The notes under the pieces are model-generated. The model was not told where the DNA came from. It searched no databases and was given only the letters and a program-made list of their open reading frames with translations. This document shows positions 8,091-56,074 of a stretch of 64,000 bases of DNA, piece after piece. Source of the stretch: an uncultured Chloroflexia bacterium (GTDB taxonomy: Bacteria; Chloroflexota; Anaerolineae; Anaerolineales; UBA4823); contig CAVYQO010000010.1 of assembly GCA_963770655.1 (NCBI GenBank), forward strand, positions 58,651-122,650, read 5' to 3'. Every line of letters starts with the position of its first letter. Positions within the stretch are counted from its first letter, which is position 1. The position numbers were made by a program, and so were the translations under genes.

Positions 8091-8095
8091 ATATT

Positions 8096-36079: not shown

Positions 36080-36136
36080 TTTTGCTTTCCAGGTCGCTGC
36101 GATGCGATATCGATCTTTCGGCGGTATTTGCTCGCT

Positions 36137-37517: not shown

Positions 37518-37650
37518 GGCCAGCCTCGGTCCAGAGGGCGTATTTGCTAGCCCATATTCGACCTCATCAAGGCTGAGCAGTGAGTGCGGATGAAAAGTGA
37601 GGTTTGAATTGAGCAGAGGTCATTGGCTGGTTACTCATCCTTTATACCCA

Positions 37651-38790: not shown

Positions 38791-38848
38791 ATACAAATGA
38801 AAGTAAACTTTCAAATTTTATTATTTTGTTGACCTGGTAGGAGGCTTG

Positions 38849-39601
38849 ATGAGTAGCACTACGAATATTTCTGATATCCAAGCCATTTTTTTAGATGTTG
38901 GCAACACGCTGCGGATCGTCGTCAGAGATGAAGGCTTTATGGCCAATTCAAAACGGCAGATGGTGAAGCTGACCGGGGCGCAGATGCCCCCCGAAGATTT
39001 TTTTGATTTTCTCGAAGCCCGCTACCAGGTTCTGCGCAAGCGGGCCAAACAGCAGTTGATCGAGGCTTCCGAGTTGGAGATGTGGACCCAGTGGATGCTT
39101 CCGGATTTTCCCGTTGATAAAGTCGCCCCATTCTCTGGAAAGCTGACCCGCCTGTGGCGTGATTGCGATGGCCGCCGGGTGCCGCGACCCGATGTTTGCA
39201 AAGTGGTCCTTGAGCTGAGCGACCGCGGCTACCTGTTGGGGATTATCGCCAATACCATCACGGAAACCGAGATCCCTGACTGGCTGGAAGCGGATCATCT
39301 GACGGATTATTTTAAGACAGTTGTCCTTTCATCGAAACTCGGTATCAGAAAACCGAACCCGGAGATTTACTGGGAATCGGCACGCCGGATTGGCGTGGAT
39401 CCGACAAAATGCGTTTACGTTGGCGATAACCTGGTCCGCGATGTGGAGGGCACCCAGGCGGCTGGTTTTGGCATGTCGATTATTCTATTAGAACCGGATA
39501 CCCTTAAAAAGGAGCCGCCAAGGGAAGATGTAAAACCCGACCGGATCATTTATGAGCTGAGCGAGCTCCTGGACATTTTCCCGCCCCGGCCACAAGTGTG
39601 A
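38849..39601 (+). CDS. HAD-superfamily hydrolase (motif I DVGNT, no Asp at +2)
   Basis: The ATG at 38849 follows GGTAGGAGG. Motifs IFLDVGNTL, IIANT, SSKLGIRKPNPEIY, VGDNLVRDVEG. Confidence 0.8.
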   Translation: MSSTTNISDIQAIFLDVGNTLRIVVRDEGFMANSKRQMVKLTGAQMPPEDFFDFLEARYQVLRKRAKQQLIEASELEMWTQWMLPDFPVDKVAPFSGKLTRLWRDCDGRRVPRPDVCKVVLELSDRGYLLGIIANTITETEIPDWLEADHLTDYFKTVVLSSKLGIRKPNPEIYWESARRIGVDPTKCVYVGDNLVRDVEGTQAAGFGMSIILLEPDTLKKEPPREDVKPDRIIYELSELLDIFPPRPQV

Positions 39602-41218
39602 CAGTGATCTCGATCGTCAACGCTCATCGGGCGCGAACTGGTACCGCAATCGCCGAGACTGTCCGGGCGATGTACCACGAAGGGGGTACGGATTACTCGC
39701 TTGAACCCATTGTCGTTGCCTCACCCCAAGGAAAACCGATCGGCCGGATTAAAGACGGCGATGCTGTTGTTTTTTGCTGCCGGCGCGGTGAGCGTGAGAT
39801 TCAACTCACAGAGGCATTCGCCGACCCAAATTTCGAGCACTTCCCGCGGGCCGATTTTCACCAGCTTGATTTTGTCATCCTGACCCTCTACCACGACAAG
39901 TTCAAAGACCTACCGGTAGCTTTTGCGCCAGCTAAGGTCAACGACACCCTGGGCGAAATCGTTAGCCGCGCCGGTCTCCGCCAGGCGCGCATCGCCGAGT
40001 CTGAGAAGTTCGCCCATGTCACCTTCTTTTTCAACGGCGGTAACAACCAGCCCTTCCCCGGCGAGGAGGGATATAGATATCCCATCCCCCAAAGGCATTC
40101 CTTATGACCAGGTTCCTGAGCTTAGCCTGGCGCAGGTAACTGAACAGGTTCGCAATGCAATGGATAAGCACTTCGACCTGATCGTGGTTAACTTTGCTAA
40201 TGGCGACGTCATCGGGCACACCTCAAATAGGGAGGCCAAGATCAAATGCGCTGAGGCAGTGGATGAGAATCTTGGAAAGGTCGTCCAGGCTGCCCGCGCC
40301 GCTGGCTATGTCGTTCTGGTTACTGCTGACCATGGAAACCTTGAAGAATTGACCACTGCGGAAGGATCGCCGCATGTCTCCCATACGACCAATCAGGTGC
40401 CGTTCATCTTGATTGATCCGCTCCAGGGTCCTCCCTTCTCTGTGCAGAACGGCAGCCTGGCCGACATCGCTCCAACGGTGCTCGCTGCGCTGCAGCTTGA
40501 ACAGCCGCTGTCCATGATTGGCAACAATCTGGCTCCCGGTCACGATTGGGGAGATAGGCGCCGCGTCCTGCTCGTGATCCTCGATGGTTGGGGGCTCGGC
40601 CGCCAGGATGTTACGAATCCGATCTTCATCGCCCATACCCCGGTGTGGGATGATCTGCTGGCCCAGGCTCCCAACTCTCAACTGATTGCCGCAGGCGAGG
40701 CAGTAGGCTTGAAATCGGGCAAGGCTGGTAATTCCGAAGCCGGGCATATGAACATCGGCGCCGGTCGCGTTGTTCTCCAGGATGATGTGCGCCTGGATCA
40801 GGCAATGCAGGATGGTTCGTTTTATTCAAACGAGATCCTGTGCGGCGTAAGCGAAGGCGTCCGCCAGCGAAAAACAAACCTGCACCTGATTGGGCTGCTT
40901 ACCGAAAAAAGCTCCCACGGCTCGATCGAGTATCCGCTGGCGTTATTGCGCATTGCTAAGAAAGCTGGATTAAAGGATGTGTATCTACATCTGATTTTCG
41001 ATGGACGGAGCACCGAGCCGGGTAGCGCACCGCTGCTGCTGGAAACGCTGGAGGAACAGCTAGATGCAATTGGCCTGGGTCAGATTGTTTCCGGGATGGG
41101 TAGGGCGATTGCCCTCGATCGGGATGGCAATTATGCCAGGACCCGCCGCGCCTATGATGCGTTGGTATTCGGCGAGGGAAGGAAATGCGTTATAGAAGGA
41201 GTTATCCGTGATTGGTAA
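39598..41218 (+). CDS. cofactor-independent phosphoglycerate mutase homolog, circularly permuted domain order, one frameshift near 40063-40070
   Basis: First half: AESEKFAHVTFFFNGG, IPSPKGIPYD, VNFANGDVIGHTS, TADHGNLEE, SHTTNQVPFIL, LADIAPTVL. Second half: VLLVILDGWG, GKAGNSEAGHMNIGAGR, LIGLLTEKSSHGS, IFDGRSTEP, GRAIALDRDGNY..YDALVFGEG. The start GTG overlaps the upstream stop (GTGTGA). Confidence 0.75.
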
Positions 41219-41257
41219 ATGCGACATCTGGCGCCTGAACATATCGGCGTTTTGGGC

Positions 41258-41303
41258 AAAATAAATGAATCGGAGAGATCGTCATGGCAGCCAATGAGTT
41301 TGG
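41258..41303 (+). promoter_or_regulatory. conserved leader element, copy 1
   Basis: AAATAAATGAATCGGAGAGATCGTCATGGCAGCCAATGAGTTTGG. It matches 42583-42625 at about 80 percent or better, with one 2-nt gap. Confidence 0.55.
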
Positions 41304-41348
41304 TTTGGTAGGGGATGTTGCCCGGCGTTCGAGTACGAAAGGGAAACG

Positions 41349-42551
41349 ATGACGGACACAATCTTGCTGAACAACCCAGAAGCCTTTTCGGAGGCGCTGT
41401 ACGAAAAGATGAAGTCGATCACTACTGGGATCGAGGAGCTTGAGCTTTACGAATTTCGTTACGGGCTGACTGACTTGCTTCCCGACCAGGGTTGGGAAGC
41501 CATAAGACTGGATCCCCAGGTAGAAATCGAAGCGCGGGTAAATCGGCGTGAATTCTATGACGGAATTCAGCTCAAGCCGAGGCTCAATGGGAGGATCGTC
41601 TTGGATCCTGAGATTGTCCGCTTGACACAGATGCTCTTCGTTGGATTGGTCAAAGGGGAATATGCCCCAGACTGGATCAGGACGCATTTTTATTTTGATA
41701 TCCGGGGATTTTATTTCCTACACCGTACGAATTATTTTACGGAGCGAGTGCTTGCACATTTTGGCGGCGAGCCGTATTTAAGCTTTGAGCGTAAGCAAAT
41801 CGAGTTCGAGCGAGTGCAGGATCTCGGTTATAAAGCCTTCAGGGAAGCCAACCTCGCCGTGGATGTGTTTTTCATTGAGAGTGTATTGAAACTCATGGGC
41901 GGATATACAGGTACGCCCCTACTCATTGCCATCGCCGGGCCAACTGCCGCTGGAAAGACCGAGATCGTTGAGCGCTTGAGCGCTGCAATCGTTCAATCAG
42001 GCAGGAAAGTCGCCTCGATTGAGTTGGACAATTTCCTGACAGACCGGGACTACCGTGAGGAGCAGGGTATCAACTCACAGGGTAAGGCAGCCTTACATTT
42101 CGAGCTCATGAAACAGGCTCTGGAAGACATTACCTGCGGAAAGAGGATCACCATCCCACGCTACGATTTTGTTTATGCCACTTCCAGCCACGACCTGGCC
42201 GGGCATTTGAAAGCCGATGGCGTACCGATAGAAATCGAGCCTGCTGACATTGTTTTCATCGAAGGGAATTTCCCTTTCTTGCTCAAGGAGATCGTCCACC
42301 TGATCGGGATTAAGGTTGTGTATCTCACCGATGATCCCATCCGGATGAAGCGAAAATGGAAACGCGATATCGACTATCGCAAGAAATATGATCCGACGTA
42401 TTTCCGCAACCGCTATTTCAAAGACCAGTTCATCATGGCCCAAATCGCTTATCACCCCCAGATGGAAGTCTGCGATATGATCATCGATACGACCGGCGCA
42501 GCAGTCTGGTTAGTCCCCGAATTCAGGAAGTTAGTGGTGAGTGGGGAGTGA
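41349..42551 (+). CDS. Udk/PRK-family P-loop kinase with an unassigned N-terminal domain of about 190 aa (paralog 1)
   Basis: C-terminal half: LLIAIAGPTAAGKTEIVERL, IELDNF, IPRYDF, IVFIEGNFPF, and RKWKRDIDYRKKYDP, which is shared with paralog 2 and not a motif I recognise from Udk/PRK enzymes. The N-terminal half has no motif I recognise. Confidence 0.7.
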   Translation: MTDTILLNNPEAFSEALYEKMKSITTGIEELELYEFRYGLTDLLPDQGWEAIRLDPQVEIEARVNRREFYDGIQLKPRLNGRIVLDPEIVRLTQMLFVGLVKGEYAPDWIRTHFYFDIRGFYFLHRTNYFTERVLAHFGGEPYLSFERKQIEFERVQDLGYKAFREANLAVDVFFIESVLKLMGGYTGTPLLIAIAGPTAAGKTEIVERLSAAIVQSGRKVASIELDNFLTDRDYREEQGINSQGKAALHFELMKQALEDITCGKRITIPRYDFVYATSSHDLAGHLKADGVPIEIEPADIVFIEGNFPFLLKEIVHLIGIKVVYLTDDPIRMKRKWKRDIDYRKKYDPTYFRNRYFKDQFIMAQIAYHPQMEVCDMIIDTTGAAVWLVPEFRKLVVSGE

Positions 42552-42582
42552 TTTATGATTAAGGGATTAGGCGCTTAGGGCT

Positions 42583-42625
42583 AAATAGATGAATTGGAGA
42601 TATCGTCCGCAGCCAGTGAGCTTGG
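42583..42625 (+). promoter_or_regulatory. conserved leader element, copy 2
   Basis: AAATAGATGAATTGGAGATATCGTCCGCAGCCAGTGAGCTTGG, upstream of the second kinase paralog. Confidence 0.55.
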
Positions 42626-42677
42626 GGGGAGGCGGGCGTGCTAGCGCTGGCCAGACCGAACCAGAAAGGAAAAAACG

Positions 42678-43883: not shown

Positions 43884-43913
43884 TAATGATCTGAAATAGA
43901 AATGAAAGAATAC

Positions 43914-43942
43914 TTGCAATTATTTTTATTTTGTTGTATTAT
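43914..43942 (+). promoter_or_regulatory. promoter candidate P2 (RpiR-ABC-HAD... operon)
   Basis: TTGCAA, a 17-nt spacer, then TATTAT. It has the same flanking blocks as P1: GAAAGAATAC upstream and ACAAATGAAAGACA downstream. Confidence 0.55.
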
Positions 43943-44022
43943 AGACAAATGAAAGACATTTTTCAATAATGGTGTTTTTGAAAAGCGCAATCTAGCACTA
44001 TAGTCCCTACACAGGTAAAGCC

Positions 44023-44892
44023 ATGAATTCACAGGATTTCAATCAAATAATTAGTGAAAAGTATGGCCAATTCACCAAAGGTGAAAAGCAAATTGCGAAT
44101 TATCTACGCCGAAACCAGGACGAGGTCGCTTTCCTTTCCGTAGGTGAGTTTGCAGACAGGCTTGGGCTGAGCGAGGCAACCTTGGTCCGGTTTGCACGCA
44201 AGCTGGGTTTTGATAGCTACCCGGCGATGCGTGAGGCGCTGCAGGAGAATTTTCGCCGCCGGGTCGGCCATTCAGCCAGGCTGCGCAACCGCTTGGACGA
44301 TTTACGTGAAGGGGGGGATATCTTCGAAAAAGTAACCGTGGCGGAAATTGACTATCTGACCGAGGCCCTTCAAACCGTTGATCGGGCGGCTTTGGATCTT
44401 GCGGTAATAAAGATGATCGCTTGCGATCACATTTATGTCTTTGGTACGGGGCCATCCATTTCTTTGGTTCACCTCCTCAATCTTCGCCTTACCCGCTTCG
44501 GCAAACAGGTCATTCCCTTAACTTTAACCGGACGAGAAACCTTGGAGCCTTTGCTGTTGATGACCGAGCGAGATCTTTTGTTTGCTATCGGTTTTTTTGA
44601 TATTAACCCTGCCCTGCAAGTTGTTCTGGACTTTGCCAGGGAGGTGAACTGCCCGGCGATCTTGCTCACCGACACCCTGGGTTCAGTGGTTGGCGAGAAG
44701 GTGGATATTGTCCTGGCTGCCAAGCGTGGGCCGGTTTCGGCATTTCATTCTCTTGTGGTCCCGATGACGATTATTAATACACTGCTTCTGGAGATTGCTA
44801 ATAAAAATCAAGAAGTTGTAACGAACAATCTGGACACGCTGGATCAATTACGAGAACGACTTAAGAAAACGAATGGTTTAAGTAGGTCATAA
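44023..44892 (+). CDS. RpiR/MurR-family transcriptional regulator (HTH + SIS domain)
   Basis: FTKGEKQIANYLRRN...SVGEFADRLGLSEATLVRFARKLGF, followed by a SIS fold (IYVFGTGPS). Confidence 0.85.
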   Translation: MNSQDFNQIISEKYGQFTKGEKQIANYLRRNQDEVAFLSVGEFADRLGLSEATLVRFARKLGFDSYPAMREALQENFRRRVGHSARLRNRLDDLREGGDIFEKVTVAEIDYLTEALQTVDRAALDLAVIKMIACDHIYVFGTGPSISLVHLLNLRLTRFGKQVIPLTLTGRETLEPLLLMTERDLLFAIGFFDINPALQVVLDFAREVNCPAILLTDTLGSVVGEKVDIVLAAKRGPVSAFHSLVVPMTIINTLLLEIANKNQEVVTNNLDTLDQLRERLKKTNGLSRS

Positions 44893-44918
44893 GGTTCCCC
44901 GCAATCAGGAGTAGGTCG

Positions 44919-46766
44919 ATGGCAAATGCTCATGCTGTAGCGCCTCAAGCACAGCTTCCAAGATCACAGCGAATTCAAGCGTCATTCAGGCGTTTTTTCC
45001 GTTGGTTGAGCAACCCGCATGTTTTCCTGGGTCTGATCATGCTGGCGCTGATGGGTTACATGGTCATTGTCCCGCTTTACCGGATGCTGATGACCACGAT
45101 CACCTACTCTGAAAATGATCTGCGCTATGCCAGAGATGCAGTCGTTGGGGAATTCACGCCTTTCCACTGGCTGAGGATGCTGACCACCAAGATTGGGATG
45201 GTGATGACCCTCGAGCCGCTGCTGCATTCCATAACGATCTCGCTGGGCGCCACGTTCATGGCTTTCGTCATCGGCGGGTCGCTTGCCTGGCTGGTGATTC
45301 GCACGGATCTACCGGGCCGTAATCTGATCAATGTCCTGGCGGTGATCCCGTACATTATGCCATCCTGGACGATTGCGATGGCCTGGAAAGTGATGTTCAA
45401 TAACGGGACCACGGGGGGGATACCTGGGATGTTGATGTATTGGACGGGGACGCCGCCGCCGGATTGGCTGGCTTATGGCCCCATCCCGATTATCATCAGC
45501 AGCGGACTGCATTACTATACATTCTTTTATTTGTTTGTTTCGGCAGCTTTGATCTCGATTGACTCCAGCCTGGAAGAAGCCGGTGAATTAGCCGGGGCCA
45601 GCCGGGTGCGGATCCTGTCTAAGATCACTTTTCCGCTGGTCATTCCCGCTTTGCTGTCCGGTTTTATCATGACCTTTTCAAAGGTCATGGGCACGTATGG
45701 CGGCCCGAATGTGTTGGGTGTACCGGTGCGCTACTATACCGTCTCGACCATGATCCGCTCAAATATTGCGGTCGGCGCTTTCGGGGATGCCTTCGTGCTG
45801 GCGATCACCCTGATCCTTTTTTCGATGACTACGATTTATATCAATCAAAGGATTGTCGGCACCAGGAAAAGCTACGAGACGATCGGCGGACGCGGTTTCA
45901 TGGCTCAGAAAACGAAGCTTCGCGATATGAGATATATCATCGCTGCGTCGGTGATCACATTTCAAGTGCTGGTGGCAACCGGACCGCTGATCCTGCTGAC
46001 CTGGAGCACGTTGATGCTCAAATCCGGCGATTACAGCCTGAGCAATTTAAGCCTGGTGCATTGGATTGGGAAGAGCAATATCCGCATCAACAGCGGCGAA
46101 CCGGGCATTTTGCGTAACCCGGCGATTTATAGAGCGGCCTGGAATACGATCAAACTGGCCGTGATGACCGCGTTTTTCACGGCGCTGCTTGGAATTGTCC
46201 TTGGCTACTCGATTGTGAAAGGTCGCGGCACGCGCCTGGCGAGAATCACCGAACAACTTGCCTTCATCCCCTACGTAATCCCGGGGATTGCCTTCGGCGC
46301 CGTTTACATCACGATGTTTTCGAAACCGGTAGGGCCGATCCCGCCGCTCTACGGCACATTTGCGCTGCTGGTAGTTGTCTCGGTGGCCAAGCATATTCCT
46401 TATTCCTCTCGCAGCGGCGTCTCGGCCATGCTCCAGGTCGGGCGAGAGCTCGAGGAGGCTGCGGCGTTGGCCGGGGCGAATAGCTGGAGACGCTTCCGCA
46501 GGATCATCTTTCCACTCACCAGCGCTGGTTTTGTCTCCGGGTTCCTGCTGACCTTCATCACCACCATGCGGGAGCTATCCCTGATCATTTTGCTTGTCAC
46601 GCCAGCTACCGCGGTTCTCTCCAGCCTGACCATGCGCTACAGTGAGAATGGGAATGAACAGCAGGCGAATGCGGTCATTATCCTTCTGATTGCGCTTGTT
46701 CTGATCGGACAGCTTATTATCAGCCGCTTCAGCGGCGGCAGCTTGAAAAAAGGTCTTGGAGGTTAG
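44919..46766 (+). CDS. ABC importer permease, duplicated (12-TM) FbpB/ThiP-type
   Basis: Two EAA loops: LEEAGELAGASRVRILSKITFPL and LEEAAALAGANSWRRFRRIIFPL. 615 aa. Confidence 0.85.
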   Translation: MANAHAVAPQAQLPRSQRIQASFRRFFRWLSNPHVFLGLIMLALMGYMVIVPLYRMLMTTITYSENDLRYARDAVVGEFTPFHWLRMLTTKIGMVMTLEPLLHSITISLGATFMAFVIGGSLAWLVIRTDLPGRNLINVLAVIPYIMPSWTIAMAWKVMFNNGTTGGIPGMLMYWTGTPPPDWLAYGPIPIIISSGLHYYTFFYLFVSAALISIDSSLEEAGELAGASRVRILSKITFPLVIPALLSGFIMTFSKVMGTYGGPNVLGVPVRYYTVSTMIRSNIAVGAFGDAFVLAITLILFSMTTIYINQRIVGTRKSYETIGGRGFMAQKTKLRDMRYIIAASVITFQVLVATGPLILLTWSTLMLKSGDYSLSNLSLVHWIGKSNIRINSGEPGILRNPAIYRAAWNTIKLAVMTAFFTALLGIVLGYSIVKGRGTRLARITEQLAFIPYVIPGIAFGAVYITMFSKPVGPIPPLYGTFALLVVVSVAKHIPYSSRSGVSAMLQVGRELEEAAALAGANSWRRFRRIIFPLTSAGFVSGFLLTFITTMRELSLIILLVTPATAVLSSLTMRYSENGNEQQANAVIILLIALVLIGQLIISRFSGGSLKKGLGG

Positions 46767-46774
46767 GGAAACTT

Positions 46775-47863
46775 ATGGCGACAACGATCACCATTAAAAA
46801 TTTGACCAAGCGTTTCGGCAACGTCGTGGCGGTAAATAACATCAGCTTGACGATCGAACCGGGCTCTTTTCTAACCCTGCTGGGACCTTCGGGCTGCGGA
46901 AAGACAACTCTGCTGCGCTGCATCGCCGGGTTGGAGGATCCCGATGATGGTGAAATCTACGTCGGCGATAAGGTTGTATATTCGCGACAGCGTGGAATTT
47001 CGATCCCCTCGGGTCAGCGCGACCTTGGAATGGTGTTTCAGAATTATGCCTTGTGGCCGCACATGACCGTTCATAAAAATATCACCTTTGCACTTGAAAT
47101 CAAAAAAATGACTAAGGCGCAGATGGATGAAAGGGTTAAGGAAGCGCTGGCCGAAGTGCAGATGGATGGCTACGCGGACCGCTACCCCCGCGAAATGAGC
47201 GGTGGGCAGCAGCAGCGCGTCGCCCTGGCTCGCATGCTGGCCTATCGCCCTAAGGTGTTCTTGATGGACGAGCCGCTATCCAACCTGGATGCCCGCTTGC
47301 GCATGGACATGCGCAGTGAGCTCAAGCGCCTGCACCATATTTCTGGCGCAACGACGATTTATGTGACCCACGATCAGCTAGAAGCATTGACCATGTCTTC
47401 AAGCATCGCGGTGATGAAGTTAGGCGTCATCCAACAATTGGATGCCCCTGACCGCATCTACCACTTCCCAGCCAATTTGTTTGTTGCGGATTTCATTGGC
47501 AATCCCAAAGTAAATTTAATGAACGGCGTGGTCAAGGGCGAAAATTTGGTTGACCTCGGAAAGTTTGATATTCCGTTAACAACACACGGTGTGACTGGAG
47601 AAGTGGTCGTGGCGGTTCGCCCTGAGGATATCAGTATTTCAACCGAGCCTATTGCCGGTGCGGTTGAATTCAGCGCCTATGCCGTGCTTCCTTCCGGAGC
47701 AAACTCGACGATTATTGCCCACCGGGATAAATTGGAACTCACTATTAAAGTGATGGGCATCAGTAAAATTGCGATGGATCAAAAAATCTGGCTGAGATTT
47801 GATCCTGATTGTTTGAACATCTACAATAAAGAAAGTGGAAATCTGGTGGTGTCATGCAATTAA
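46775..47863 (+). CDS. ABC importer ATPase (PotA/FbpC/MalK-type)
   Basis: GPSGCGKTT, MSGGQQQRVALARML, FLMDEPLSNLD, and a C-terminal TOBE-like regulatory domain. Confidence 0.9.
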   Translation: MATTITIKNLTKRFGNVVAVNNISLTIEPGSFLTLLGPSGCGKTTLLRCIAGLEDPDDGEIYVGDKVVYSRQRGISIPSGQRDLGMVFQNYALWPHMTVHKNITFALEIKKMTKAQMDERVKEALAEVQMDGYADRYPREMSGGQQQRVALARMLAYRPKVFLMDEPLSNLDARLRMDMRSELKRLHHISGATTIYVTHDQLEALTMSSSIAVMKLGVIQQLDAPDRIYHFPANLFVADFIGNPKVNLMNGVVKGENLVDLGKFDIPLTTHGVTGEVVVAVRPEDISISTEPIAGAVEFSAYAVLPSGANSTIIAHRDKLELTIKVMGISKIAMDQKIWLRFDPDCLNIYNKESGNLVVSCN

Positions 47864-47983
47864 AGGATGAACAAAGCTCAGCTCAAAATTGTTATCAAGG
47901 AGGCTGCATGGGATAAACCCTTTGAGAAATGTAAAAAGTGATCGTTCATGTGATTGACTCAATCATCAAGAAGGAGAAATGAA

Positions 47984-49249
47984 ATGAAAAATTTCGGTAA
48001 GTTATTGACCCTCGTGATTTTAATCTGCTTCCTGGCCGGCTGTGCAACTCCCGCACCGACAGCCGCCCCGGTAACGCAGCCGGCAGCAGCCGAGCCGGAA
48101 AACCGGCCGACACTGCCGTTCCAGCGCCGACAGAAGTCCCCCCCACTGAAGCGCCCGCTTTGACGCCAAAGGAAGAATGGCTGAAAGCGAACCAGCTTGG
48201 CACTTATACTTCCGATACCCAGGACTGGGCTGCGATCGAAGAAGCTGCCAAGAAGGAAGGAAAAGTAATCGTTTATGCCAACTCTTCCAAGATTGCCAAT
48301 GCAGCCGAGATTTGGGCGGAGAAATACCCGGACATCGCCATAGAAGGATATGATCTGGGCGGCGACGATGTGCTTTCTAAGACTATCGGAGAGCAGGAAT
48401 CGGGCCTGGTCGTTGGCGACGTTTGGTTCAGCAGCGGCGGCGCTGAAGTCGTCGGCAATGTTCTGCCAAAAGAATATGTCTGGCGCTTCATACCGGATAG
48501 CGTATCTGTATCTCCCGAATATACGGAGCCACTATTGATGTCCCGACTTGGAACGACAATATTGGCTTATAACTCGGAGCTAAACGAAAAATGCCCGGTG
48601 ACCAACCTTTGGGAATTAACCCAACCGGAATGGAAAGGCAAGTTTGTCATCGAGGATCCGCTAAATGACGCCTCCACGCTGAGCAAACTGCTCACCATTG
48701 TTTACCACGCTGATGAAATGAAGCAAGCGTATATCGATCTCTACGGGTCCGAACCAGTACTGGATGCCGATACCCCGGACGCTGGCTGGTTGTGGCTTAA
48801 GAAGTTTGCTCAGAACGCCCCCATCCCGCAGCCAGGCGGCGATGAAGTCGAACTCAGCCTTTGCCGCCCCAGGGATGAAAGATAGTCTGCTTGCCTTTAC
48901 CTCGTACTCGAACTACCCCGATGTTCAAGATGGCAACCTGGCCTTTGAGCCATGCTGGGGCGTTACGCCGATCAGCGGTATTCAGGCGCAAAGCTACCTG
49001 GGCGTCATGAACCAGGCGCCGCACCCGAACGCGGCTAAGTTGTTTATTAAGTTCATCACGAGTGCAGACGGGCGCGATCCCTGGGCTAAATTTGGCACCT
49101 ATTTCCCCGACCCAACTTATGAAGTGCCGGAAGGCCAATTGACCCTGGATGAAGTGCAGAAATTGACCTGGTTTATTCCGGAGCAATTTGCCTACGATAA
49201 TCTCGTTCAGGCTCGCGACTTTTATTTGTTGAACTTGGGTACACCGTAA
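47984..49249 (+). CDS. ABC importer substrate-binding lipoprotein, two frameshifts (48099-48102 and about 48841-48860)
   Basis: MKNFGKLLTLVILICFLAGC lipobox, then a Pro/Ala/Thr linker. The three track ORFs 47954..48163, 48160..48885 and 48764..49249 join into one family-1 solute-binding protein. The first break is an A4 run that needs A5. Confidence 0.75.
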
Positions 49250-49285
49250 AACATATCAGTAATCAGCTTACAGCGGTCAAGGATT

Positions 49286-49403
49286 CAGCCTGGGCATAGC
49301 AGCGACCCATGTCCAGGCTGCGCCGCCGCAAGCGCGATAAATCGATCGAACCAAAACGAAACCATAGGGGCGCACGTAGTGCAAGCAGCACGTAGTGCGC
49401 CCC
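49286..49403 (+). other. two strong hairpins in a 226-nt intra-cluster spacer
   Basis: First hairpin, 49286-49320: CAGCCTGGGCAT / ATGTCCAGGCTG, 12 bp with 1 mismatch. Second hairpin, 49367-49403: GGGGCGCAC-GTA-GTGC-AAGCA-GCAC-GTA-GTGCGCCCC. Confidence 0.6.
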
Positions 49404-49475
49404 TACAGAGAGAACGCATGGACAAGGATGGTCCTCGCGTATAGTGGAGTATTCTCTCGGCAAGGAGGCAGTCGT

Positions 49476-50913
49476 ATGACCATCAGGGCGGTATTCTTTG
49501 ACATGGGAGGCACAATCCAGACCTTCAGCTATACCCGCGAGCTGCGCCTGGCTGCAACGCCGGGCCTCCGCGAACTGCTCAGGTCATCCGGGATCAACCT
49601 GTCTCTCGACGACGAAGCGCTCTTTACTTTGGTGTCGGACGGCCTGGCGCGTTATCACGAATGGAGCATCGACAGCATGCAGGAGCTGCCTCCGCAGAAA
49701 GTTTGGCGCGACTACATCCTAACCGGCCTTGTGGTTGATTCCAAAATCTTGGATTCGATCGCTGAGGATTTGATGGTTTATATCGAAACTCGATACTACT
49801 ACCGTGAGATGCGACCCGAAGCGCCCGATGTTTTGGAGGCTATCCGGAGCATGGGATTAAAGATTGGCCTGATCAGCAATGTATGCAGCCGGAGGCAGGT
49901 CCCTGACAATTTAGCGGAATATGGCATTGCTGATTTTTTCGATCCCATCGTCCTTGTCCAGTGAATATGGGCGGCGCAAACCCGACCCGGCAATTTTTCA
50001 CTATGCTGCCCGACTGGCGAACGTCCCTACCAGCGAATGTCTTTATGTGGGCGATCGCATCGCCCGGGATATCGTAGGTGCGCGCAAAGCGGGCTTCAAG
50101 CTTGCGATCCAGATCAGGAATGATTTCAAGCACGGAGAGGTCGACGAAGGCGCGACCCCGGATGCGGCAATCGAGGAGTTGACCGAGCTGCTCGATATTC
50201 TTAGGAGAGATCAACTGGCTGTCGCCGAAAGCGGGACCTCCGCGGCTGACCCCTCTAGGCGGGTCCGCGCCCTGTTGTTCGATGCCGGCGATATCCTTTA
50301 CTACAGGACAGAGCGCGGTTGTAAGTTTGCCCATTTCCTTCAGGAATTGGGTCTCGATACCTTTACCAAGCACGATGTAGAGAAGGAAAAACTGGTACAG
50401 CAGGCTTACCGGGGAGAGATCAGCCAGGATGAATACCGGGAGGCTATTCTCCGCTTGTACGGCGTCTCACAGCCGGCTGATATTGAACGCGGCAAGCGGA
50501 TCCTGGCAGAAGAAGATGATGGCGTCAGTTTTTTTGACGGCGTCCAGCAAACGCTGCTCGATCTGAAGCACAAGGGCTTCTTACTGGGGATTGTCACCGA
50601 TACCGCCAATCCGATTTATGTCAAACTAAGCTGGTTTGAGCAGGGCGGTTTTGAGCATGTTTGGGATTCGATCATATCGTCACAAGAGATCGGAGTGCGC
50701 AAGCCGGACCCCAGGATTTATGGCGCCGCGATGCAGCAATTAGGTGTTACCTCCGATCAGGTCGTGTTTATCGGGCATAAGCCCTCCGAACTGGACGGCG
50801 CTCGCGCGGTTGGAATGAAAACAATTGCCTTTAACTACGAACAAAATGCGCAGGCGGATTTTTATATCCAGCAGTTTCCCGAGCTGTTGAAACTGCCGGT
50901 CATCGCAGCGTAA
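49476..50913 (+). CDS. tandem double HAD-domain protein, one frameshift near 49950-49958
   Basis: The ATG at 49476 follows AAGGAGG. Domain 1: VFFDMGGTI ... SSEYGRRKPDPAIF ... VGDRIARDI. Domain 2: LLFDAGDIL ... SSQEIGVRKPDPRIY ... IGHKPSELDG. The track ORFs 49395..49964 and 49921..50913 join at ...ADFFDPIVL | SSEYGRRKPDP. Confidence 0.75.
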
Positions 50914-50937
50914 TTGCTATTGGGAAAAATTTACCAA

Positions 50938-52611
50938 ATGATTGATCACGTAGAAGCCATTTTATTTGATATGGGCGGCACCCTGCGCAGCACCCGGAAG
51001 CGCAGCAGGGAAGACCGGCTTGCATTTACCACCGAGATCCTAAAACTGCTGGGTTCCAGCGCTGATCCGGCAAGGTTTTCGCGCTTGCTGGCCCGCCGGG
51101 CGACTGCCTACCGGCGCTGGGCGCGTGAGACCATGATCGAACTAAATGAAATCGAGCTGTGGACACGCTGGATGCTACCGGATTGGCCACAAGAGCAGAT
51201 CCGCACCCAAGCCATCCAGCTCAATGATCTGTGGCGCAAAGCAACTGGGGAGCGGATCGTCTTCCCGGAGGCGGCCGTGGTTCTGCGAGAGCTCTTCCGC
51301 CGCGGCTACCGGCTTGGGCTGGTCAGCAACACTACCAGCAGCACCGAAGTCCCAGAGGCTTTTCGAAAGTTGGGTCTTACCGGTTATTTTGAGACGATCA
51401 TCCTTTCTGCAGTCGTTGGCAAGCGGAAACCCGATCCTGGTATCTTGCTGGAAGCGACCGGCCGCATGGAAATTGAGCCCGATAAATGCGTCTACATTGG
51501 CGATCTCCCCCACCGGGATGTGGCGGCTGCCCGAAAAGCCGGATTTTCAAAAACGATCCTGATCCGCAAGCGCTCCAGACGGGGCGCCAAACCGATTGCG
51601 GATGCCCGGCTCGAGCCCGATTATGACATCCGCAATCTGATGGAGCTGCTGGATATTTTCCCGCGGCGCACTCCCCCGCAGCCAGCGCCTATTTTTGCAG
51701 CATCTGTCTCCACAATGTGGGCGATCAAAAATTTCAACTCGCTGGGAGATTTCATGGAAGCTGGCCGGCGGATCGGGTTGGGCGCGATTGAATTAAATCA
51801 CCAGGTCGATTCGATTATGTTAGAGGGAATCCCCCTGGTCGAACATCATTTCAGCAGCATCCATGAGCCCTGCCCGGCGGATATTTCCGTGGCGGTGTTG
51901 AAAAATCGCGACTGGCTGATCTCAGCGACGGACGAAGCCTGCCGCCGCGAAGGGGTGAGGTCCATTCAGCGCAGCATCGACCTGGCGCGCCAGTTGGGAG
52001 CGGGCGCGATTGTCATCCATTCCGGGACCGTACACCCAGACCGGTCATTTGAAGATCGCCTGCGCCATCTGCTCCTTGCCGGGCAGAACCACACGCAGGA
52101 ATATCGGGATTTATACGACCTCCTCATCCAAAAACGGCGCCAATTTGCGTCTCCCGGCCTGGAGGCAGTTAAGCAAAGTCTCGTAGATCTGCTCGATTAT
52201 GCCGCCGGATCTGGGATTCGCTTAGGTCTTGAGAACCGCTATCATTATTTGGAATTCCCCAGCCCGGATGAACTGGCCGAGCTGCTCAGTATGGCAGGAC
52301 CCGACCGCCTGGGTTTTATTTACGATGTCGGCCACGCCCAGGCGCTATCTCGTTTGGGGTTTTATCCCCACGATGAATGGCTCAGGCGCTTTGGGCAGCG
52401 CATGATTGGTACGCATCTTCACGATGTGATTGGCTTACAGGATCACCTGGCGCCGGGGCAAGGCGAAGTGGATTTCGATTTAATTTCAGCTTATTTACCC
52501 AAAGAAGCATTTCGAACGATAGAGGTTCAAGGACCCTACACCCACGAGCAGATCAAAGAGAGCCTGATGTTCCTTCAACAGCACGGATGTATCGTGAAGC
52601 AGGAAATTTAA
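50938..52611 (+). CDS. HAD domain fused to a xylose-isomerase-like TIM-barrel domain
   Basis: N-terminal: ILFDMGGTL, VSNT, GKRKPDPGIL, IGDLPHRDV. C-terminal: GAIELNH, IVIHSG, GLENRYH, YDVGHA, HLHD. Start is taken at the ATG at 50938; a TTG at 50914 is possible. Confidence 0.75.
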   Translation: MIDHVEAILFDMGGTLRSTRKRSREDRLAFTTEILKLLGSSADPARFSRLLARRATAYRRWARETMIELNEIELWTRWMLPDWPQEQIRTQAIQLNDLWRKATGERIVFPEAAVVLRELFRRGYRLGLVSNTTSSTEVPEAFRKLGLTGYFETIILSAVVGKRKPDPGILLEATGRMEIEPDKCVYIGDLPHRDVAAARKAGFSKTILIRKRSRRGAKPIADARLEPDYDIRNLMELLDIFPRRTPPQPAPIFAASVSTMWAIKNFNSLGDFMEAGRRIGLGAIELNHQVDSIMLEGIPLVEHHFSSIHEPCPADISVAVLKNRDWLISATDEACRREGVRSIQRSIDLARQLGAGAIVIHSGTVHPDRSFEDRLRHLLLAGQNHTQEYRDLYDLLIQKRRQFASPGLEAVKQSLVDLLDYAAGSGIRLGLENRYHYLEFPSPDELAELLSMAGPDRLGFIYDVGHAQALSRLGFYPHDEWLRRFGQRMIGTHLHDVIGLQDHLAPGQGEVDFDLISAYLPKEAFRTIEVQGPYTHEQIKESLMFLQQHGCIVKQEI

Positions 52612-52665
52612 AGGTACACAGGTGAGGGCGCACTCGCGTGTGCGTCCCAAATAGGAGGTATTCGC

Positions 52666-53283
52666 ATGCGCAAGTTATTCAAGAAACGTCAAAACAGATT
52701 TATTTTGATGATCCGCAACCAGGCCTCGCTCACTCTGGAAGGCATGGATGCATTGAAAGCTTATATGACTGGCGATGATCCGGCGGCAAGCGTACTCACC
52801 GCCAAGGAAAAAGAAGCCGATGAAGCCCGCCGGATTCTCATCGATGAATTGAACCAAACCTTTGTGACGCCTTTCGACCGTGAGGATATTTTCAGTCTCT
52901 CCCGCACCATCGATGACGTTATCGACTATGCCTACAGCACGGTCAACGAAATGGAAATCCTGAATGTTGAACCAACTCCTTTCAGCCTGCGCATGGCGTC
53001 CCTGCTCCGAGACGCAGCTTACGAACTGCTCATGGCTGTGGACTGTCTTGAAGAGCATCCCCGGGTTACCAATGAGCATGCCCAGCGCGCCAAGGCGCTC
53101 GAAAACCGGGTGGAAGCGGTTTACCGCGAAGCGCTAGCCGATCTTTTCAGCGAGGTCGATGACATCGCCCAGGTGGTTAAGATGCTGAAAATGCGCGAGG
53201 TCTATCGCCATTTGAGCAACGCCGCTGACCGCGGCGATGAAGCAGCAAACGTATTGGCTGACATCGTGGTCAAGATCACCTGA
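52666..53283 (+). CDS. DUF47/PhoU-like phosphate-transport accessory protein
   Basis: 205-aa helical protein with FVTPFDREDI and a pairing to PiT, as is typical. Confidence 0.75.
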   Translation: MRKLFKKRQNRFILMIRNQASLTLEGMDALKAYMTGDDPAASVLTAKEKEADEARRILIDELNQTFVTPFDREDIFSLSRTIDDVIDYAYSTVNEMEILNVEPTPFSLRMASLLRDAAYELLMAVDCLEEHPRVTNEHAQRAKALENRVEAVYREALADLFSEVDDIAQVVKMLKMREVYRHLSNAADRGDEAANVLADIVVKIT

Positions 53284-53293
53284 GAAAAGGTCA

Positions 53294-54286
53294 ATGTCCA
53301 TTACCCTGTTTCTTCTTATTGTCGTAATTGTATTGGCGTTGGCGTTCGATTTTTTGAACGGCATCCACGACTCGAGCAATGTCGTTGCCACAATGATTTC
53401 ATCGCGGTCGCTGCCGCCTCGAGTTGCCCTGGGAATGACTGCTGTGGCGGAATTTCTGGGTCCCTTTATCTTTGGCGTGGCCGTGGCGGAAACGATCGGA
53501 GGCATCGTCGATGCGAATGCAATTAGCCTGCAGGTACTGATCGCGGCCTTGGGTAGTGCAATCCTGTGGAACTTGCTGACCTGGTACCTGGGTTTTCCGA
53601 GCAGCTCGTCGCATGCCCTGGTCGGTGGTTTGATCGGGGCGGTGCTGGTCGGGGCGGGTTGGCAGGCAATTAACCTCGACGAATTCGAAAAAATTGTGAT
53701 TGCCTTGTTCACCTCTCCGTTTATTGGATTCATTTTTGGCTTTATTCTGCTGAGAATTATTATGGTACTTTGCTGGAACGCCACGCCGAGAGTCAACTGG
53801 ATCTTCAAACGCGGCCAGATCTTTACAGGGCTTGCCCTGGCCCTCAGCCATGGTGCGAATGATGCCCAAAAGACGATGGGCCTAATCTCGCTTGCCCTGG
53901 TCATCGCCGGATATTCGGCTACTTTGGTGGTCCCGGAGTGGGTTATCTTCTTATGCGCCAGTATGATCGCCCTGGGGACCGCCATGGGCGGCTGGAAGCT
54001 GATCCGCACCCTGGGGGGCAAGTTCTATAAAATCCGCCCGGTGGACGGATTTTCGTCTCAATTGGCCTCTGCCACCGTCATCCTTGGCGCTTCGCTGGTC
54101 GGCGGCCCGGTGAGCACAACCCAGGTGGTCAGTTCGTCGATCATGGGGGCAGGCGCCGCCGAGCGGGTGAATAAAGTGCGTTGGGGTGTAGCTCAGGAGA
54201 TCGCCACTGCCTGGTTGTTGACCATTCCGGCTACCGCCCTGGTTGCTGCCGGGCTTTACTGGGTCATTATTCAATTTATCCCTTGA
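53294..54286 (+). CDS. PiT-family inorganic phosphate transporter
   Basis: The ATG at 53294. Motifs FDFLNGIHDSSNVVA and SHGANDAQKTMG (the two PiT signature repeats). 330 aa, polytopic. Confidence 0.85.
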   Translation: MSITLFLLIVVIVLALAFDFLNGIHDSSNVVATMISSRSLPPRVALGMTAVAEFLGPFIFGVAVAETIGGIVDANAISLQVLIAALGSAILWNLLTWYLGFPSSSSHALVGGLIGAVLVGAGWQAINLDEFEKIVIALFTSPFIGFIFGFILLRIIMVLCWNATPRVNWIFKRGQIFTGLALALSHGANDAQKTMGLISLALVIAGYSATLVVPEWVIFLCASMIALGTAMGGWKLIRTLGGKFYKIRPVDGFSSQLASATVILGASLVGGPVSTTQVVSSSIMGAGAAERVNKVRWGVAQEIATAWLLTIPATALVAAGLYWVIIQFIP

Positions 54287-54314
54287 CCCCTACTAATTTT
54301 TTTGAAAGGTTATC

Positions 54315-55217
54315 ATGACAACGAACAATATCTACGATCTGGTGTGTATTGGCAATTACACCAAGGACACAATTATTTCCCCAGCGGGGGTAAGATACGT
54401 CGATGGCGGCGCGGTCAACTATGCCGCCCATGCCGCGGCCCAGCTTGGGATCAAGACAGCCGTGGTCACCCGCCTTGCCCAGGAGGACGACCGCGTGGTG
54501 AAGAAGTTTGCAGCGGCCGGCATTGATTGCTTTGTTGTTTACACGCCGCAATCCACGTTGATGAAGCTCGAATATCCGACGGCGGATCCCGACATCCGCC
54601 GCCTATCTGTAGCCGCCACAGCCGGTTCGATCACCGGTGAGCAAGTTGAAAACCTGCAGACCAGGGCGGCTGTGATTGGTTCGAGCCTGCGCGGTGAGGT
54701 TGGGTTGGACGTGATCCAGGCTTTGAAGGCCAGGGGAGTCCTGGTGGCTGCAGATATGCAGGGGTACGTGCGCGTCCTGCGCGGCGAAGAGCTCCGCTAC
54801 GAGGCCTGGGAAGAAATGCAATCGACGCTGGCCCAGGTCGACATCGTTAAAAGCGATGCGGTGGAGGCGGAGTTCCTGACTGGCGAAACGGATTTGCGCA
54901 AAGCCGCCCAATTCTATGCTGCCATGGGACCCAGAGAGATCGTGCTCACCCACAAGGACGGCGTGCTCATCTATGCCGACGGAATTTTCACCGATGTCGG
55001 GTTCTTCCCGGCGAGGATGGACGGGCGCAGCGGCCGCGGCGATACCTGTATCGGTACGTACGTTGCGATGCGGCTTTCCAAGCCGCCGCGCCAGGCTGGC
55101 ATCTGGGCCGCGGCGGTCACCAGTTTAAAAATGGAAGATCTCGGACCTTTCAATCGCTCAATCGCTGATGTGGATGCACTGATCCATGCAAAATACAATC
55201 ACGGATCGGTTCAATAA
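54315..55217 (+). CDS. PfkB-family carbohydrate kinase
   Basis: LVCIGNYTKD, GGAVNYAA, and a C-terminal GRGDTCIGTYV. Confidence 0.8.
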   Translation: MTTNNIYDLVCIGNYTKDTIISPAGVRYVDGGAVNYAAHAAAQLGIKTAVVTRLAQEDDRVVKKFAAAGIDCFVVYTPQSTLMKLEYPTADPDIRRLSVAATAGSITGEQVENLQTRAAVIGSSLRGEVGLDVIQALKARGVLVAADMQGYVRVLRGEELRYEAWEEMQSTLAQVDIVKSDAVEAEFLTGETDLRKAAQFYAAMGPREIVLTHKDGVLIYADGIFTDVGFFPARMDGRSGRGDTCIGTYVAMRLSKPPRQAGIWAAAVTSLKMEDLGPFNRSIADVDALIHAKYNHGSVQ

Positions 55218-55285
55218 GGAGCAAGCCCGCATCGCCCAGTGCAAGGCTAGACGCAGCAGCCGGTTATCCCCAACTTTTCGCAGGT

Positions 55286-56074
55286 ATGGCTGCAGAGTGG
55301 AATTCACCCGCTTCAGCAGACTGCGCCTGGCTGATGTATGCTGCGAATTATGTTTTTCGCACAGGGGGCATCCTTTGGGCGATGGATCCCCTAACCTTGC
55401 GCTGGCGCGTCCCTGAAGCGCCTGCAGTGGACACCCGCCATGCCTTCGACCGGCTTGATTTTGTACTGCTGACCCACCGCCATGCCGACCACCTGGATTT
55501 CGATCTGCTGAGATCGCTGCGCCATCTGCCCATCCGCTGGATTGTTCCAGAGTACCTCCTCCCCGAGGTGATGGCAGAAGCGGCGCTGCCCGAGAATCAA
55601 ATCACTGTGCCGAACCTGCTCCAGCCCTTCGAAATCAAAGGGATTCACATCCTGCCCTTCGAAGGAAGGCATTGGGAAGCATCCCCGGGCGGCGACGGGA
55701 GTCTGCACGGGGTACCGGCGATGGGATACCGGATCCAGTTCAACGGCAAATCCTGGCTTTTTCCGGGCGACACCCGAAATTATCAAGGCGCACACAATCC
55801 ATCCCTGCCGGCGGTAGATGGCGTGTTCGCCCATGTATGGCTGGGACGCCGCTGCGCCTTGCTCGACGAGCCGCCCTTGCTGGACGACTTCTGCCGTTTC
55901 TGCGCCAGCCTGCAGCCGGAACGGGTGATCCTGACCCATCTGGAGGAATTTGGTCGAAAGGCGGACAATTACTGGGATGACCGCCACGCCCAGATGGTAA
56001 TCAAACGCCTGGGACAGATCGCACCGCAGATCCCCGTGCTGGCGGTTCGCATGGGAGAACGCGTTAGCCTGTAG
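55286..56074 (+). CDS. metallo-beta-lactamase-fold hydrolase
   Basis: LLTHRHADHLD (HxHxDH). Confidence 0.75.
   Translation: MAAEWNSPASADCAWLMYAANYVFRTGGILWAMDPLTLRWRVPEAPAVDTRHAFDRLDFVLLTHRHADHLDFDLLRSLRHLPIRWIVPEYLLPEVMAEAALPENQITVPNLLQPFEIKGIHILPFEGRHWEASPGGDGSLHGVPAMGYRIQFNGKSWLFPGDTRNYQGAHNPSLPAVDGVFAHVWLGRRCALLDEPPLLDDFCRFCASLQPERVILTHLEEFGRKADNYWDDRHAQMVIKRLGQIAPQIPVLAVRMGERVSL

Follow-up and report, generated by a model that had tools for sequence, protein, structure and literature searches.

A conserved Anaerolineae gene cluster beside inositol catabolism: a candidate system for the uptake and processing of inositol phosphates

Inositol phosphates form the largest organic phosphorus pool in soils, sediments and manures. 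In their known microbial turnover, phytases free the phosphate without bringing the inositol phosphate into the cytoplasm. Here, we describe a cluster of 14 genes that is most likely the front end of inositol catabolism in the Anaerolineae. The genes occupy positions 38846-56074 of a 64-kb stretch of DNA (C10:58651-122650, hereafter the window, whose numbering is used throughout), and all lie on the plus strand with short gaps, as found from the open reading frames together with Pfam and NCBIfam matches. The window belongs to a 17-contig, 4.39-Mb genome that is 95% complete, and named relatives place this genome in the Anaerolineae (Chloroflexota). An earlier reading of the DNA letters (the original prediction) had listed the same 14 genes as a one-strand cluster with short gaps, and each of them was recovered at its place on the plus strand.

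Among the closest known systems is the Thermotoga maritima inositol operon TM0411-TM0416, in which TM0415 is a pyrophosphate (PPi)-dependent myo-inositol 1-kinase (PMC5931981). The pyrophosphate signature of this family is RXGRGD, in which two arginines surround the GXGD catalytic motif, and the physiological role of PPi-dependent inositol kinases was left open by their discoverers (PMC5931981). In the same study, 'homolog 49' from Levilinea saccharolytica was found to phosphorylate myo-inositol with PPi, and not with ATP or ADP, and not to make inositol 1-phosphate (PMC5931981). For the importer, the closest systems are AfuABC, which imports hexose and heptose phosphates, P5PA, which binds pyridoxal phosphate (PLP), and the metal-citrate system MctA; members of this class that were earlier annotated as iron-binding proved to be binders of phosphorylated compounds (PMC4546632, PMC8427247). 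The PfkB kinase family is thus already published, and the pathway of the cluster was not found in the literature that was searched. The search returned no relevant paper on import of phytate by an ATP-binding cassette (ABC) system with inositol catabolism, or on Anaerolineae and phytate, and neither a curated family nor a paper was found for the permuted iPGM, for the long kinases, for the DxGxTLR HAD proteins or for the cluster as a whole. It had been proposed that the cluster maps to no known pathway, and the substrate-binding protein (SBP), long kinases, HAD proteins and permuted mutase indeed fall in no curated equivalog with a known pathway.

The PfkB protein of the cluster is a full-length homologue of TM0415 (PDB 1vk4, 5ysp and 7e4l; E about 1e-39; residues 9-287). 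It carries the signature as RSGRGD (GRSGRGDTC), which is invariant in 14 orthologues, and its lysine (in VKSD) and methionine (in SLKME) align with K171 and M266 of TM0415; M266 and F221 are its occluding residues, and the position aligned with F221 is uncertain in the alignment. In the acceptor site, Leu78, Leu89 and Ser116 are the residues of Levilinea homolog 49, in which positions 78, 89 and 116 are likewise Leu, Leu and Ser (PMC5931981). The Levilinea orthologue is 70% identical to the window gene, is the single close copy in that genome, and lies directly after the PiT gene in the Levilinea copy of the cluster. As judged from sequence, the window kinase is the orthologue of the tested PPi-dependent homolog 49. 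An ESM Atlas look-up of the protein returned generic family names only.

The comparison with the T. maritima operon extends beyond the kinase. Both loci have a TM0415-type RXGRGD kinase in an inositol neighbourhood, with IolG, IolN and IolO equivalogs and an IolM-like zinc-dependent alcohol dehydrogenase (Zn-ADH) that stays below its cut-off. In contrast to T. maritima, the window kinase stands in a separate RpiR-controlled cluster together with HAD proteins, mutases, P-loop kinases, an importer of the anion class and a PiT transporter, and its acceptor site is of the Levilinea type rather than that of TM0415.

The divergent neighbour of the cluster encodes IolO, a Zn-ADH, IolN, IolG, an IolM-like protein, a PfkB kinase, Gnd, a LarA-like hexonate epimerase, a short-chain dehydrogenase/reductase (SDR), UxaE and LacI. 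Three of these exceed their NCBIfam equivalog cut-offs (IolO with 348.9 bits against 300, IolN with 306.7 against 245, and IolG with 367.6 against 355). The IolM-like Zn-ADH (30258-31334) scores 180.7 bits, below the cut-off of 450, and the other Zn-ADH lies at 26814-28010. On sequence criteria, this neighbour encodes an inositol pathway of the Thermotoga type whose lower part is unusual. The original prediction had noted that the cluster abuts a catabolic cluster of an inositol/hexuronate type; the three equivalog scores agree with this, and the adjacency is conserved among relatives.

An inositol module of one of two types flanks the cluster in 39 related loci. The Thermotoga-type flank (LacI/UxaE/SDR/LarA or IolG/IolM/IolN) is found in 30 of them, including the window, and a non-homologous Bacillus-type flank (IolD/IolG/IolA/IolE) in nine others, including cultured L. 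saccharolytica. The Bacillus-type genes were identified by an IolD fragment of 311 bits, IolG at 389 and 483 bits (cut-off 355), methylmalonate-semialdehyde dehydrogenase (MMSDH/IolA) at 551 bits (cut-off 448) and an IolE-like protein at 203 bits. Inheritance alone does not readily explain why the same flank holds either of two unrelated inositol pathways. The phyletic pattern points the same way: IolG is above its cut-off in 13 of 41 relatives, namely all nine with the cluster and four of the 32 without it, counts that come from related genomes, so that their independence is overstated, which tells against the reading proposed below. In cluster-bearing genomes, IolG is usually on the same contig within about 10 kb, and four of the five genomes with a relocated or minimal form of the cluster also have it. 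It is very likely that the cluster belongs to inositol metabolism.

The lower part of the neighbouring pathway is of separate interest. A LarA-like nickel-dependent hexonate epimerase, a PfkB kinase and 6-phosphogluconate dehydrogenase are found there in place of mannonate dehydratase and 2-keto-3-deoxy-6-phosphogluconate aldolase. This suggests a route from mannonate through gluconate and 6-phosphogluconate to ribulose-5-phosphate.

The cluster is conserved as a unit, in more than 100 Anaerolineae species. Full-length homologues of the long kinases occur in eight of 40 relatives, each time within the same cluster. When one genome per species was searched (185,579 species), 134 stretches encoded a relative of the long kinase; 80 of these were kept; their labels are almost all Anaerolineae or Chloroflexota, and a few are probably mis-binned. 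The loci compared below are 87 related loci from different Anaerolineae species. In most of them the order is HAD (one to three copies), permuted iPGM, ApgM where present, kinase (one or two copies), RpiR, permease, ATPase, SBP, HAD-HAD, HAD-TIM, DUF47, PiT and PfkB, and a single alternative order was seen, with the transporter first. An ApgM-type mutase stands between the permuted iPGM and the kinase in 69 of the 87 loci; the window and its nearest relatives have no ApgM and carry a second kinase copy in this slot. This gene arrangement is far beyond chance. The gene-neighbourhood search that had been suggested as a check of random adjacency thus found the genes co-conserved as a unit across many genera.

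The edges of the unit are more variable. The genes of the downstream flank are not conserved among the related loci, and a metallo-beta-lactamase (MBL)-fold gene follows PfkB in some relatives only. The original prediction had counted this gene as part of the cluster; it is present in the window, but among relatives it is a variable member. Two of the 87 loci (L057 and L064, about 6300-17300) have a minimal core of HAD, permuted iPGM, ApgM and long kinase, with no RpiR, ABC or HAD-TIM part; the genes that come after this core encode a ribokinase and a nucleoside ABC transporter of the Bmp/PnrA type. The genes upstream of the core were scanned in L064, where they are polysaccharide-synthesis genes.

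Two sites in the cluster share a promoter-like layout. A 64-nt direct repeat with a 75% match precedes the first HAD gene and the RpiR gene (P1 and P2 in Table 1), and each copy contains two TGAAAG-N5-TTTCA palindromes, 47 nt apart. In the 64-kb window the palindrome occurs at four sites only, all of them in P1 and P2 (eight strand-matches, where 1.17 are expected). Among related loci, it lies no more than 250 nt ahead of the RpiR gene in 49 of 58 and upstream of a HAD1 gene in 47 of 65, and 138 of its 170 matches in 1.47 Mb of loci fall upstream of RpiR or HAD genes. P2 also contains the promoter-like sequence TTGCAA-17-TATTAT (43914-43942). Because the paired palindrome is conserved at both promoters, the cluster is a co-regulated two-promoter unit. 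The palindrome pairs are a candidate RpiR operator, and the cluster is probably a two-promoter regulon controlled by its own RpiR, the presumed sensor of a phospho-metabolite. Scanned with Rfam (E <= 1), positions 38000-57000 yielded one chance-level match and no riboswitch or known RNA leader, and a terminator scan found no more sites than in shuffled sequence.

Table 1. Coordinates of the cluster genes, promoters, neighbouring cluster and frame-breaking indels in the window
Feature	Position	Strand	Basis or remark
LacI-controlled inositol-catabolic cluster, divergent neighbour	25930..38676	-	Pfam, NCBIfam
Promoter P1	38751..38814	+	Divergent gap between LacI gene and first HAD gene
HAD-IA hydrolase (HAD1)	38846..39601	+	Pfam HAD_2/Hydrolase; motif I DVGNT; DxGxTLR family
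Circularly permuted iPGM-family phosphomutase	39598..41218	+	Pfam domain order, 1EJJ alignment; frame-split
iPGM indel	about 40070		Extra G, lengthens short G-run
Long kinase A, PRK/Udk family, 400 aa	41349..42551	+	Pfam PRK at residues 192-380
Long kinase B, PRK/Udk family, 400 aa	42678..43883	+	Paralogue of kinase A
Promoter P2	43903..43966	+	Before RpiR gene; two-palindrome layout as in P1
RpiR/MurR-family regulator	44023..44892	+	HTH_6 + SIS (Pfam, NCBIfam)
Fused two-domain (12-transmembrane type) ABC permease, Fbp/Thi/PhnU2/Afu class	44919..46766	+	Two BPD_transp_1 stretches
ABC ATPase subunit	46775..47863	+	Pfam, NCBIfam
Lipoprotein SBP, ferric / metal-citrate / sugar-phosphate class	47984..49249	+	Signal peptide, fold matches; frame-split
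SBP indel 1	about 48096		Missing A in A-run of SBP linker
SBP indel 2	about 48851		Extra A, not in homopolymer
HAD-HAD protein	49395..50913	+	Domain 1 DMGGT, domain 2 DAGDI; frame-split
HAD-HAD indel	about 49956		Extra G, not in homopolymer
HAD-TIM: HAD (DMGGT, Arg-rich cap) + xylose-isomerase-like TIM barrel	50914..52611	+	Pfam
DUF47 (PhoU_div), usual PiT partner	52666..53283	+	Pfam
PiT-family inorganic phosphate (metal-phosphate) transporter	53237..54286	+	Pfam
PfkB, TM0415-type PPi-dependent inositol kinase	54315..55217	+	PDB 1vk4 / 5ysp / 7e4l homology
MBL-fold (Lactamase_B_2) protein	55286..56074	+	Pfam; variable member

The reading that we favour, which we regard as evenly poised between right and wrong, is that the cluster imports inositol phosphates such as phytate, repositions and removes their phosphates, and hands the inositol on for breakdown. 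The lipoprotein SBP and the fused-permease importer would take up an anionic inositol derivative, most likely inositol phosphates, in the form of phytate or its partial breakdown products and perhaps as metal complexes. In the cytoplasm, the phosphates would be repositioned by the permuted iPGM-type phosphomutase, joined in most relatives by the ApgM-type mutase. The two PanK/PRK/Udk-fold kinases and the PPi-dependent inositol kinase would exchange phosphates, in one direction or the other, and four HAD domains that lack the Asp+2 acid/base would remove them. The TIM barrel fused to a HAD domain may isomerise a dephosphorylated inosose or inositol product, and PiT with DUF47 may dispose of, or balance, the released phosphate or metal-phosphate. 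Free inositol would then enter the adjacent IolG-IolM-IolN-IolO-UxaE pathway. The original prediction had suggested uptake and stepwise processing of a phosphorylated or nucleoside-like compound, with an inositol phosphate as one option; the inositol-phosphate part is backed by the flanks, by the tracking of IolG and by the PfkB kinase, and the nucleoside-like part gained little.

If this proposal is correct, the phosphorus and carbon cycles would gain a route not yet listed in them, one that runs in the cytoplasm and has its own importer. Such a route would also give a function at once to the permuted iPGM, the acid-less HAD family, the kinases with a novel domain and the PPi-dependent inositol kinases. 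Anaerolineae are abundant in sediment, wetland, soil and activated sludge, and DNA near-identical to that of the window was found in each of these; none of the public runs listed with such DNA is of RNA. The cultured host L. saccharolytica carries the cluster, and the idea is thus directly testable.

The importer is the only one in the 30-kb supercluster, as none of the genes of the inositol cluster encodes a transporter. Its SBP matches no curated NCBIfam family, and sequence searches of the PDB with the SBP, as with the MBL-fold protein, gave only weak or uninformative matches. An AlphaFold2 model of the SBP orthologue from L011 (predicted local distance difference test, pLDDT, 94) finds as fold matches MctA (metal-citrate, Z 26.5), HitA (ferric, 25.5), the hexose-phosphate binder AfuA (24.5), the glucose 6-phosphate-binding VcA0625 (23.5) and the PLP-binding P5PA (23.3), with Z values tied within about 3 and identities to solved members of 11-18%. 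The SBP thus appears, from its modelled fold, to be of a class of anion or metal-chelate binders. The permease has PhnU2 as its best NCBIfam match, far below the cut-off. With its SBP fold, fused double permease and one ATPase, the importer has the make-up of the Afu/Fbp/Mct class, as in AfuABC, P5PA and MctA (Z 23-26.5; PMC4546632, PMC8427247); it differs from these systems in sequence (identity 16-18%), in its setting among phosphoryl-transfer enzymes and in its link to inositol genes. Domains and fold therefore agree with the original assignment to the iron/thiamine/polyamine/phosphonate class rather than the sugar class. The accompanying PiT had been called a dedicated phosphate transporter; PiT and DUF47 do stand in the cluster, but this is the sole PiT copy in the genome and it may serve general transport.

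The HAD proteins belong to a DxGxTLR family. All four HAD domains have glycine at Asp+2 (DVGNT, DMGGT, DAGDI and DMGGT), so that the usual acid/base is missing, and within the DxGxTLR motif this glycine is found in at least 90% of 150 homologues. HAD1, domain 1 of HAD-HAD, and HAD-TIM retain DxGxT, RKPxP and GDxxxRD, that is, the motif I Asp, the motif III Lys and the motif IV acidic residues; in domain 2 of HAD-HAD, motif IV is degenerate. The best sequence matches are TIGR02253 (CTE7), TIGR02252 (REG-2-like) and the structures PH0459, PH1655 and HDHD3, with which the cluster proteins have the nucleophile Asp, the Lys of motif III and the acidic residues of motif IV in common. The best NCBIfam match of HAD1 is TIGR02253, below its cut-off, and its nearest PDB entries include NANP besides those just named. 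Unlike TIGR02253 and TIGR02252 members, the cluster proteins fall below the family cut-offs, have Gly at Asp+2, and occur as fusions with one another and with a TIM barrel. Their caps look rich in Arg and Lys by eye. Relatives with two or three HAD1 copies have more than four HAD domains. The TIM barrel of HAD-TIM belongs by Pfam to the xylose-isomerase-like family that includes IolE, IolI and IolO; its metal-site residues are conserved, its nearest PDB entry is MJ1311 (3wqo), a weak match, and an ESM Atlas search with this part returned generic AP_endonuc_2 clusters only.

The alternative that survives best, though still an unlikely one, is that the cluster serves the salvage or activation of inositol: the importer would take up free inositol or another cyclitol, the kinases would build inositol phosphates and the mutases would set their isomer. 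The products would be the inducer of RpiR, a precursor of lipid head groups or a phosphate store, with the HAD proteins resetting the pool. The only measured activity, forward phosphorylation of myo-inositol with PPi (PMC5931981), is in the direction expected for salvage, as is the presence of three kinases per cluster, and the linkage to inositol genes fits salvage as it fits import of inositol phosphates. Against salvage stands the SBP, whose fold class binds anions or metal chelates rather than sugars or polyols. Known inositol ABC systems typically use sugar or polyol binders. Furthermore, four to seven HAD domains and a PiT transporter fit the removal of phosphate better than synthesis, and the neighbouring genes are catabolic.

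The mutase bears on a second alternative. When the intact orthologue is aligned with the Geobacillus iPGM 1EJJ, residues 34-324 match 219-508 and residues 333-542 match 3-212. By this alignment the mutase is a true circular permutant that does not have the canonical linear domain order, and its termini lie near what is residue 213-218 in 1EJJ. It is present as an intact single frame of 530-570 aa in most relatives. Both iPGM domains are there, and the intact orthologue scores 492.8 bits on TIGR01307 (cut-off 330.65); the larger fragment in the window alone reaches 368.4 bits. As in GpmI (TIGR01307; 1EJJ), the Ser62 nucleophile and all metal (Mn) ligands are conserved (D12, S62, D403, H407, D444, H445 and H462), as are most substrate-binding residues (R153, R185, R191, R261, R264, K336 and H123). 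In contrast to GpmI, D154 is replaced by Ser (DGRD to DGRS) and the DGGVHSH loop reads EKSSHGS; we take DGRD/D154 and DGGVHSH to be residues of the glycerate pocket of 1EJJ. No description of a permuted iPGM was found in the literature search.

A further difference from GpmI is distribution. The iPGM_N domain was found in cluster-bearing relatives only, apart from one canonical copy in G036. The possibility that the permuted enzyme is the housekeeping glycolytic mutase of the order was rejected on this ground, and because iPGM_N is so confined the permuted enzyme is better seen as an accessory enzyme. The window genome has no other iPGM or ApgM that could be found and no clear GpmA, and here the permuted iPGM may double as glycolytic mutase, or one of about five His_Phos proteins may take this role. 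The best-scoring His_Phos protein, the only one scanned, has no match near the cut-off to a GpmA-type cofactor-dependent phosphoglycerate mutase (dPGM) and is closest to an MSMEG_4193-type putative phosphomutase.

These observations bear on the proposal that the cluster serves the use of sugar phosphates or phosphoglycerate in the manner of AfuABC, with genuine phosphoglycerate mutases and with kinases for glycerate or sugar acids, so that the inositol genes are neighbours through inherited synteny. We consider this rather improbable. In its favour are the 493-bit score with all catalytic and most substrate residues kept, the ApgM of relatives above its equivalog cut-off, and the fold neighbours of the long kinases, which include pantothenate kinase and D-glycerate 3-kinase. 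The lack of another iPGM or ApgM in the genome, with no GpmA-type match near the cut-off in its best His_Phos protein, would also be explained, and the SBP resembles AfuA and VcA0625. However, inherited synteny leaves unexplained why the flanking inositol pathway is of one type in some lineages and of an unrelated type in others, and the cluster itself contains a TM0415-type inositol kinase. The confinement of iPGM_N to cluster-bearing relatives argues against a housekeeping mutase of the order, and the pocket of the mutase is altered at D154.

Several points weigh against import of inositol phosphates as set out above. The ApgM of relatives passes the phosphoglycerate-mutase equivalog cut-off NF003160, and the permuted iPGM, itself above the TIGR01307 cut-off, keeps the arginines that bind carboxylate and phosphate. 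Since both mutases pass their cut-offs and the binding arginines are kept, phosphoglycerate-like substrates are still conceivable. The one measured activity in the cluster family is that of the PfkB orthologue, and the authors who measured it suspect that the Levilinea kinase has something other than free inositol as its true acceptor (PMC5931981). Kinases and phosphatases in one pathway look futile unless the kinases run in reverse or make specific isomers, and HAD proteins without Asp+2 may be poor phosphomonoesterases. PiT may be a general phosphate transporter whose link to the cluster is partly positional, and one cluster-bearing genome (G039) has no PiT. The minimal core of L057 and L064 lacks the importer and stands beside a ribokinase and a nucleoside-type ABC system.

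It is tempting to speculate that, in taking up inositol phosphates, fermentative Anaerolineae conserve energy from phytate besides dephosphorylating it. The PPi-dependent and P-loop kinases would run in reverse, passing phosphoryl groups from crowded inositol polyphosphates to phosphate or ADP, with PPi or ATP as the product. The permuted iPGM and ApgM would shift the remaining phosphates to positions that the kinases accept, and the HAD proteins would remove what could not be harvested. This would amount to substrate-level phosphorylation on the most abundant organophosphate of soil. We hold this version to be distinctly improbable.

In the long kinases, an N-terminal domain that is specific to the lineage and about 190 aa long precedes a P-loop kinase domain of the PanK/PRK/Udk/GLYK fold, and kinases A and B are 57% identical to each other. 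Their PRK (PF00485) scores are 65.1 and 55.5 bits, above the Pfam cut-off of 22, and both are far below the equivalog cut-offs (69 bits against 180 for Udk; 66 against 236 for PRK). An AlphaFold2 model (pLDDT 93) has fold matches that cover residues from about 136 to 400 only, with Z 18.4 for MtPanK and Z 13-15 for FrcK-like kinases, glycerate 3-kinase, PRK and Udk. Foldseek and VIA-align searches with the whole kinase model, in which the N-terminal domain was not folded alone, listed no match covering residues 1-135. A search with the N-terminal domain gave 94 representative clusters among 1.84 billion, in which the full-length matches are all kinases of about 330-400 aa and the others are fragments. 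The C-terminal 210 residues share fold and Walker A with PRK, uridine kinase, pantothenate kinase and D-glycerate 3-kinase, and RKWKRD is presumably the Udk/PRK lid motif. Unlike these PF00485 kinases, the long kinases have the extra N-terminal domain, with no sequence relatives outside its own family.

Automatic JGI annotation as uridine kinase, together with a best NCBIfam match of the kinases to the same family, would suit a role in nucleoside or nucleotide salvage, with Udk-like kinases, YjjG-like HAD nucleotidases and a phosphopentomutase-like mutase. The HAD proteins weakly match YjjG-type nucleotidase models, and a ribokinase and a nucleoside ABC system of the Bmp/PnrA type come after the core in L057 and L064. 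Such a role is very unlikely. The family matches, that to uridine kinase among them, are all far below curated cut-offs, the cluster has no nucleoside phosphorylase or hydrolase, and the Bmp association is confined to two of the 87 loci. The mutase resembles iPGM far more than it does DeoB, and the linkage to inositol genes would be left unexplained.

Two further observations concern the kinases. Of the full-length long kinases, the one most distant from the others (P0140 in L106, 10001-11179; 41% identity in the N-terminal domain) lies outside any such cluster. It adjoins a 367-aa protein with a faint nucleotidyltransferase match, and a Na/Pi cotransporter with PhoU is near on the opposite strand. 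A PRK-RuBisCO or pentose-bisphosphate shunt fed by Gnd was considered and dropped, as a search of the genome, which is 95% complete, found no RuBisCO.

In the assembled sequence, three cluster genes (iPGM, SBP and HAD-HAD) are frame-broken by four single-base indels. The three insertions among them are absent from the two nearest relatives, and orthologues of the split genes are single open frames in nearly all relatives. Contigs of four short-read runs from other metagenomes, in which near-identical DNA covers the stretch in pieces, span the indels at 40070, 48096 and 48851; at 40070 and 48851 they are free of the inserted base, and at 48096 they have the missing A. The split genes are otherwise free of stop codons and are 69-87% identical to those of the nearest relatives, L011 and L012. 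Similar splits are seen in the UxaE gene (36137-36850 / 36669-37517), near 29400 at the 3' end of IolG, and in a His_Phos gene of contig 17 (C17:24673-25228). As relatives and short-read contigs, where they cover the sites, lack the indels and unrelated genes are split alike, the four indels are most likely errors of the long-read consensus rather than marks of pseudogenisation. Decay of the cluster in this genome, with iPGM, SBP and HAD-HAD as pseudogenes of a non-functional locus, would account for four frame-breaking indels in three genes, but it is extremely unlikely given intact short-read contigs at three of the sites, one indel in an A-run and one that extends a short G-run (the remaining two being outside homopolymers), unrelated genes split in the same manner, and split genes with no further stops or divergence.

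The indel rate in this region of the assembly is seemingly one per roughly 4-6 kb, and because indels recur at about this spacing, split genes in the region are not to be taken as pseudogenes. With its frame restored, the SBP has its start at 47984, a lipoprotein signal peptide with the lipobox FLAGC, and a Pro/Thr/Ala linker.

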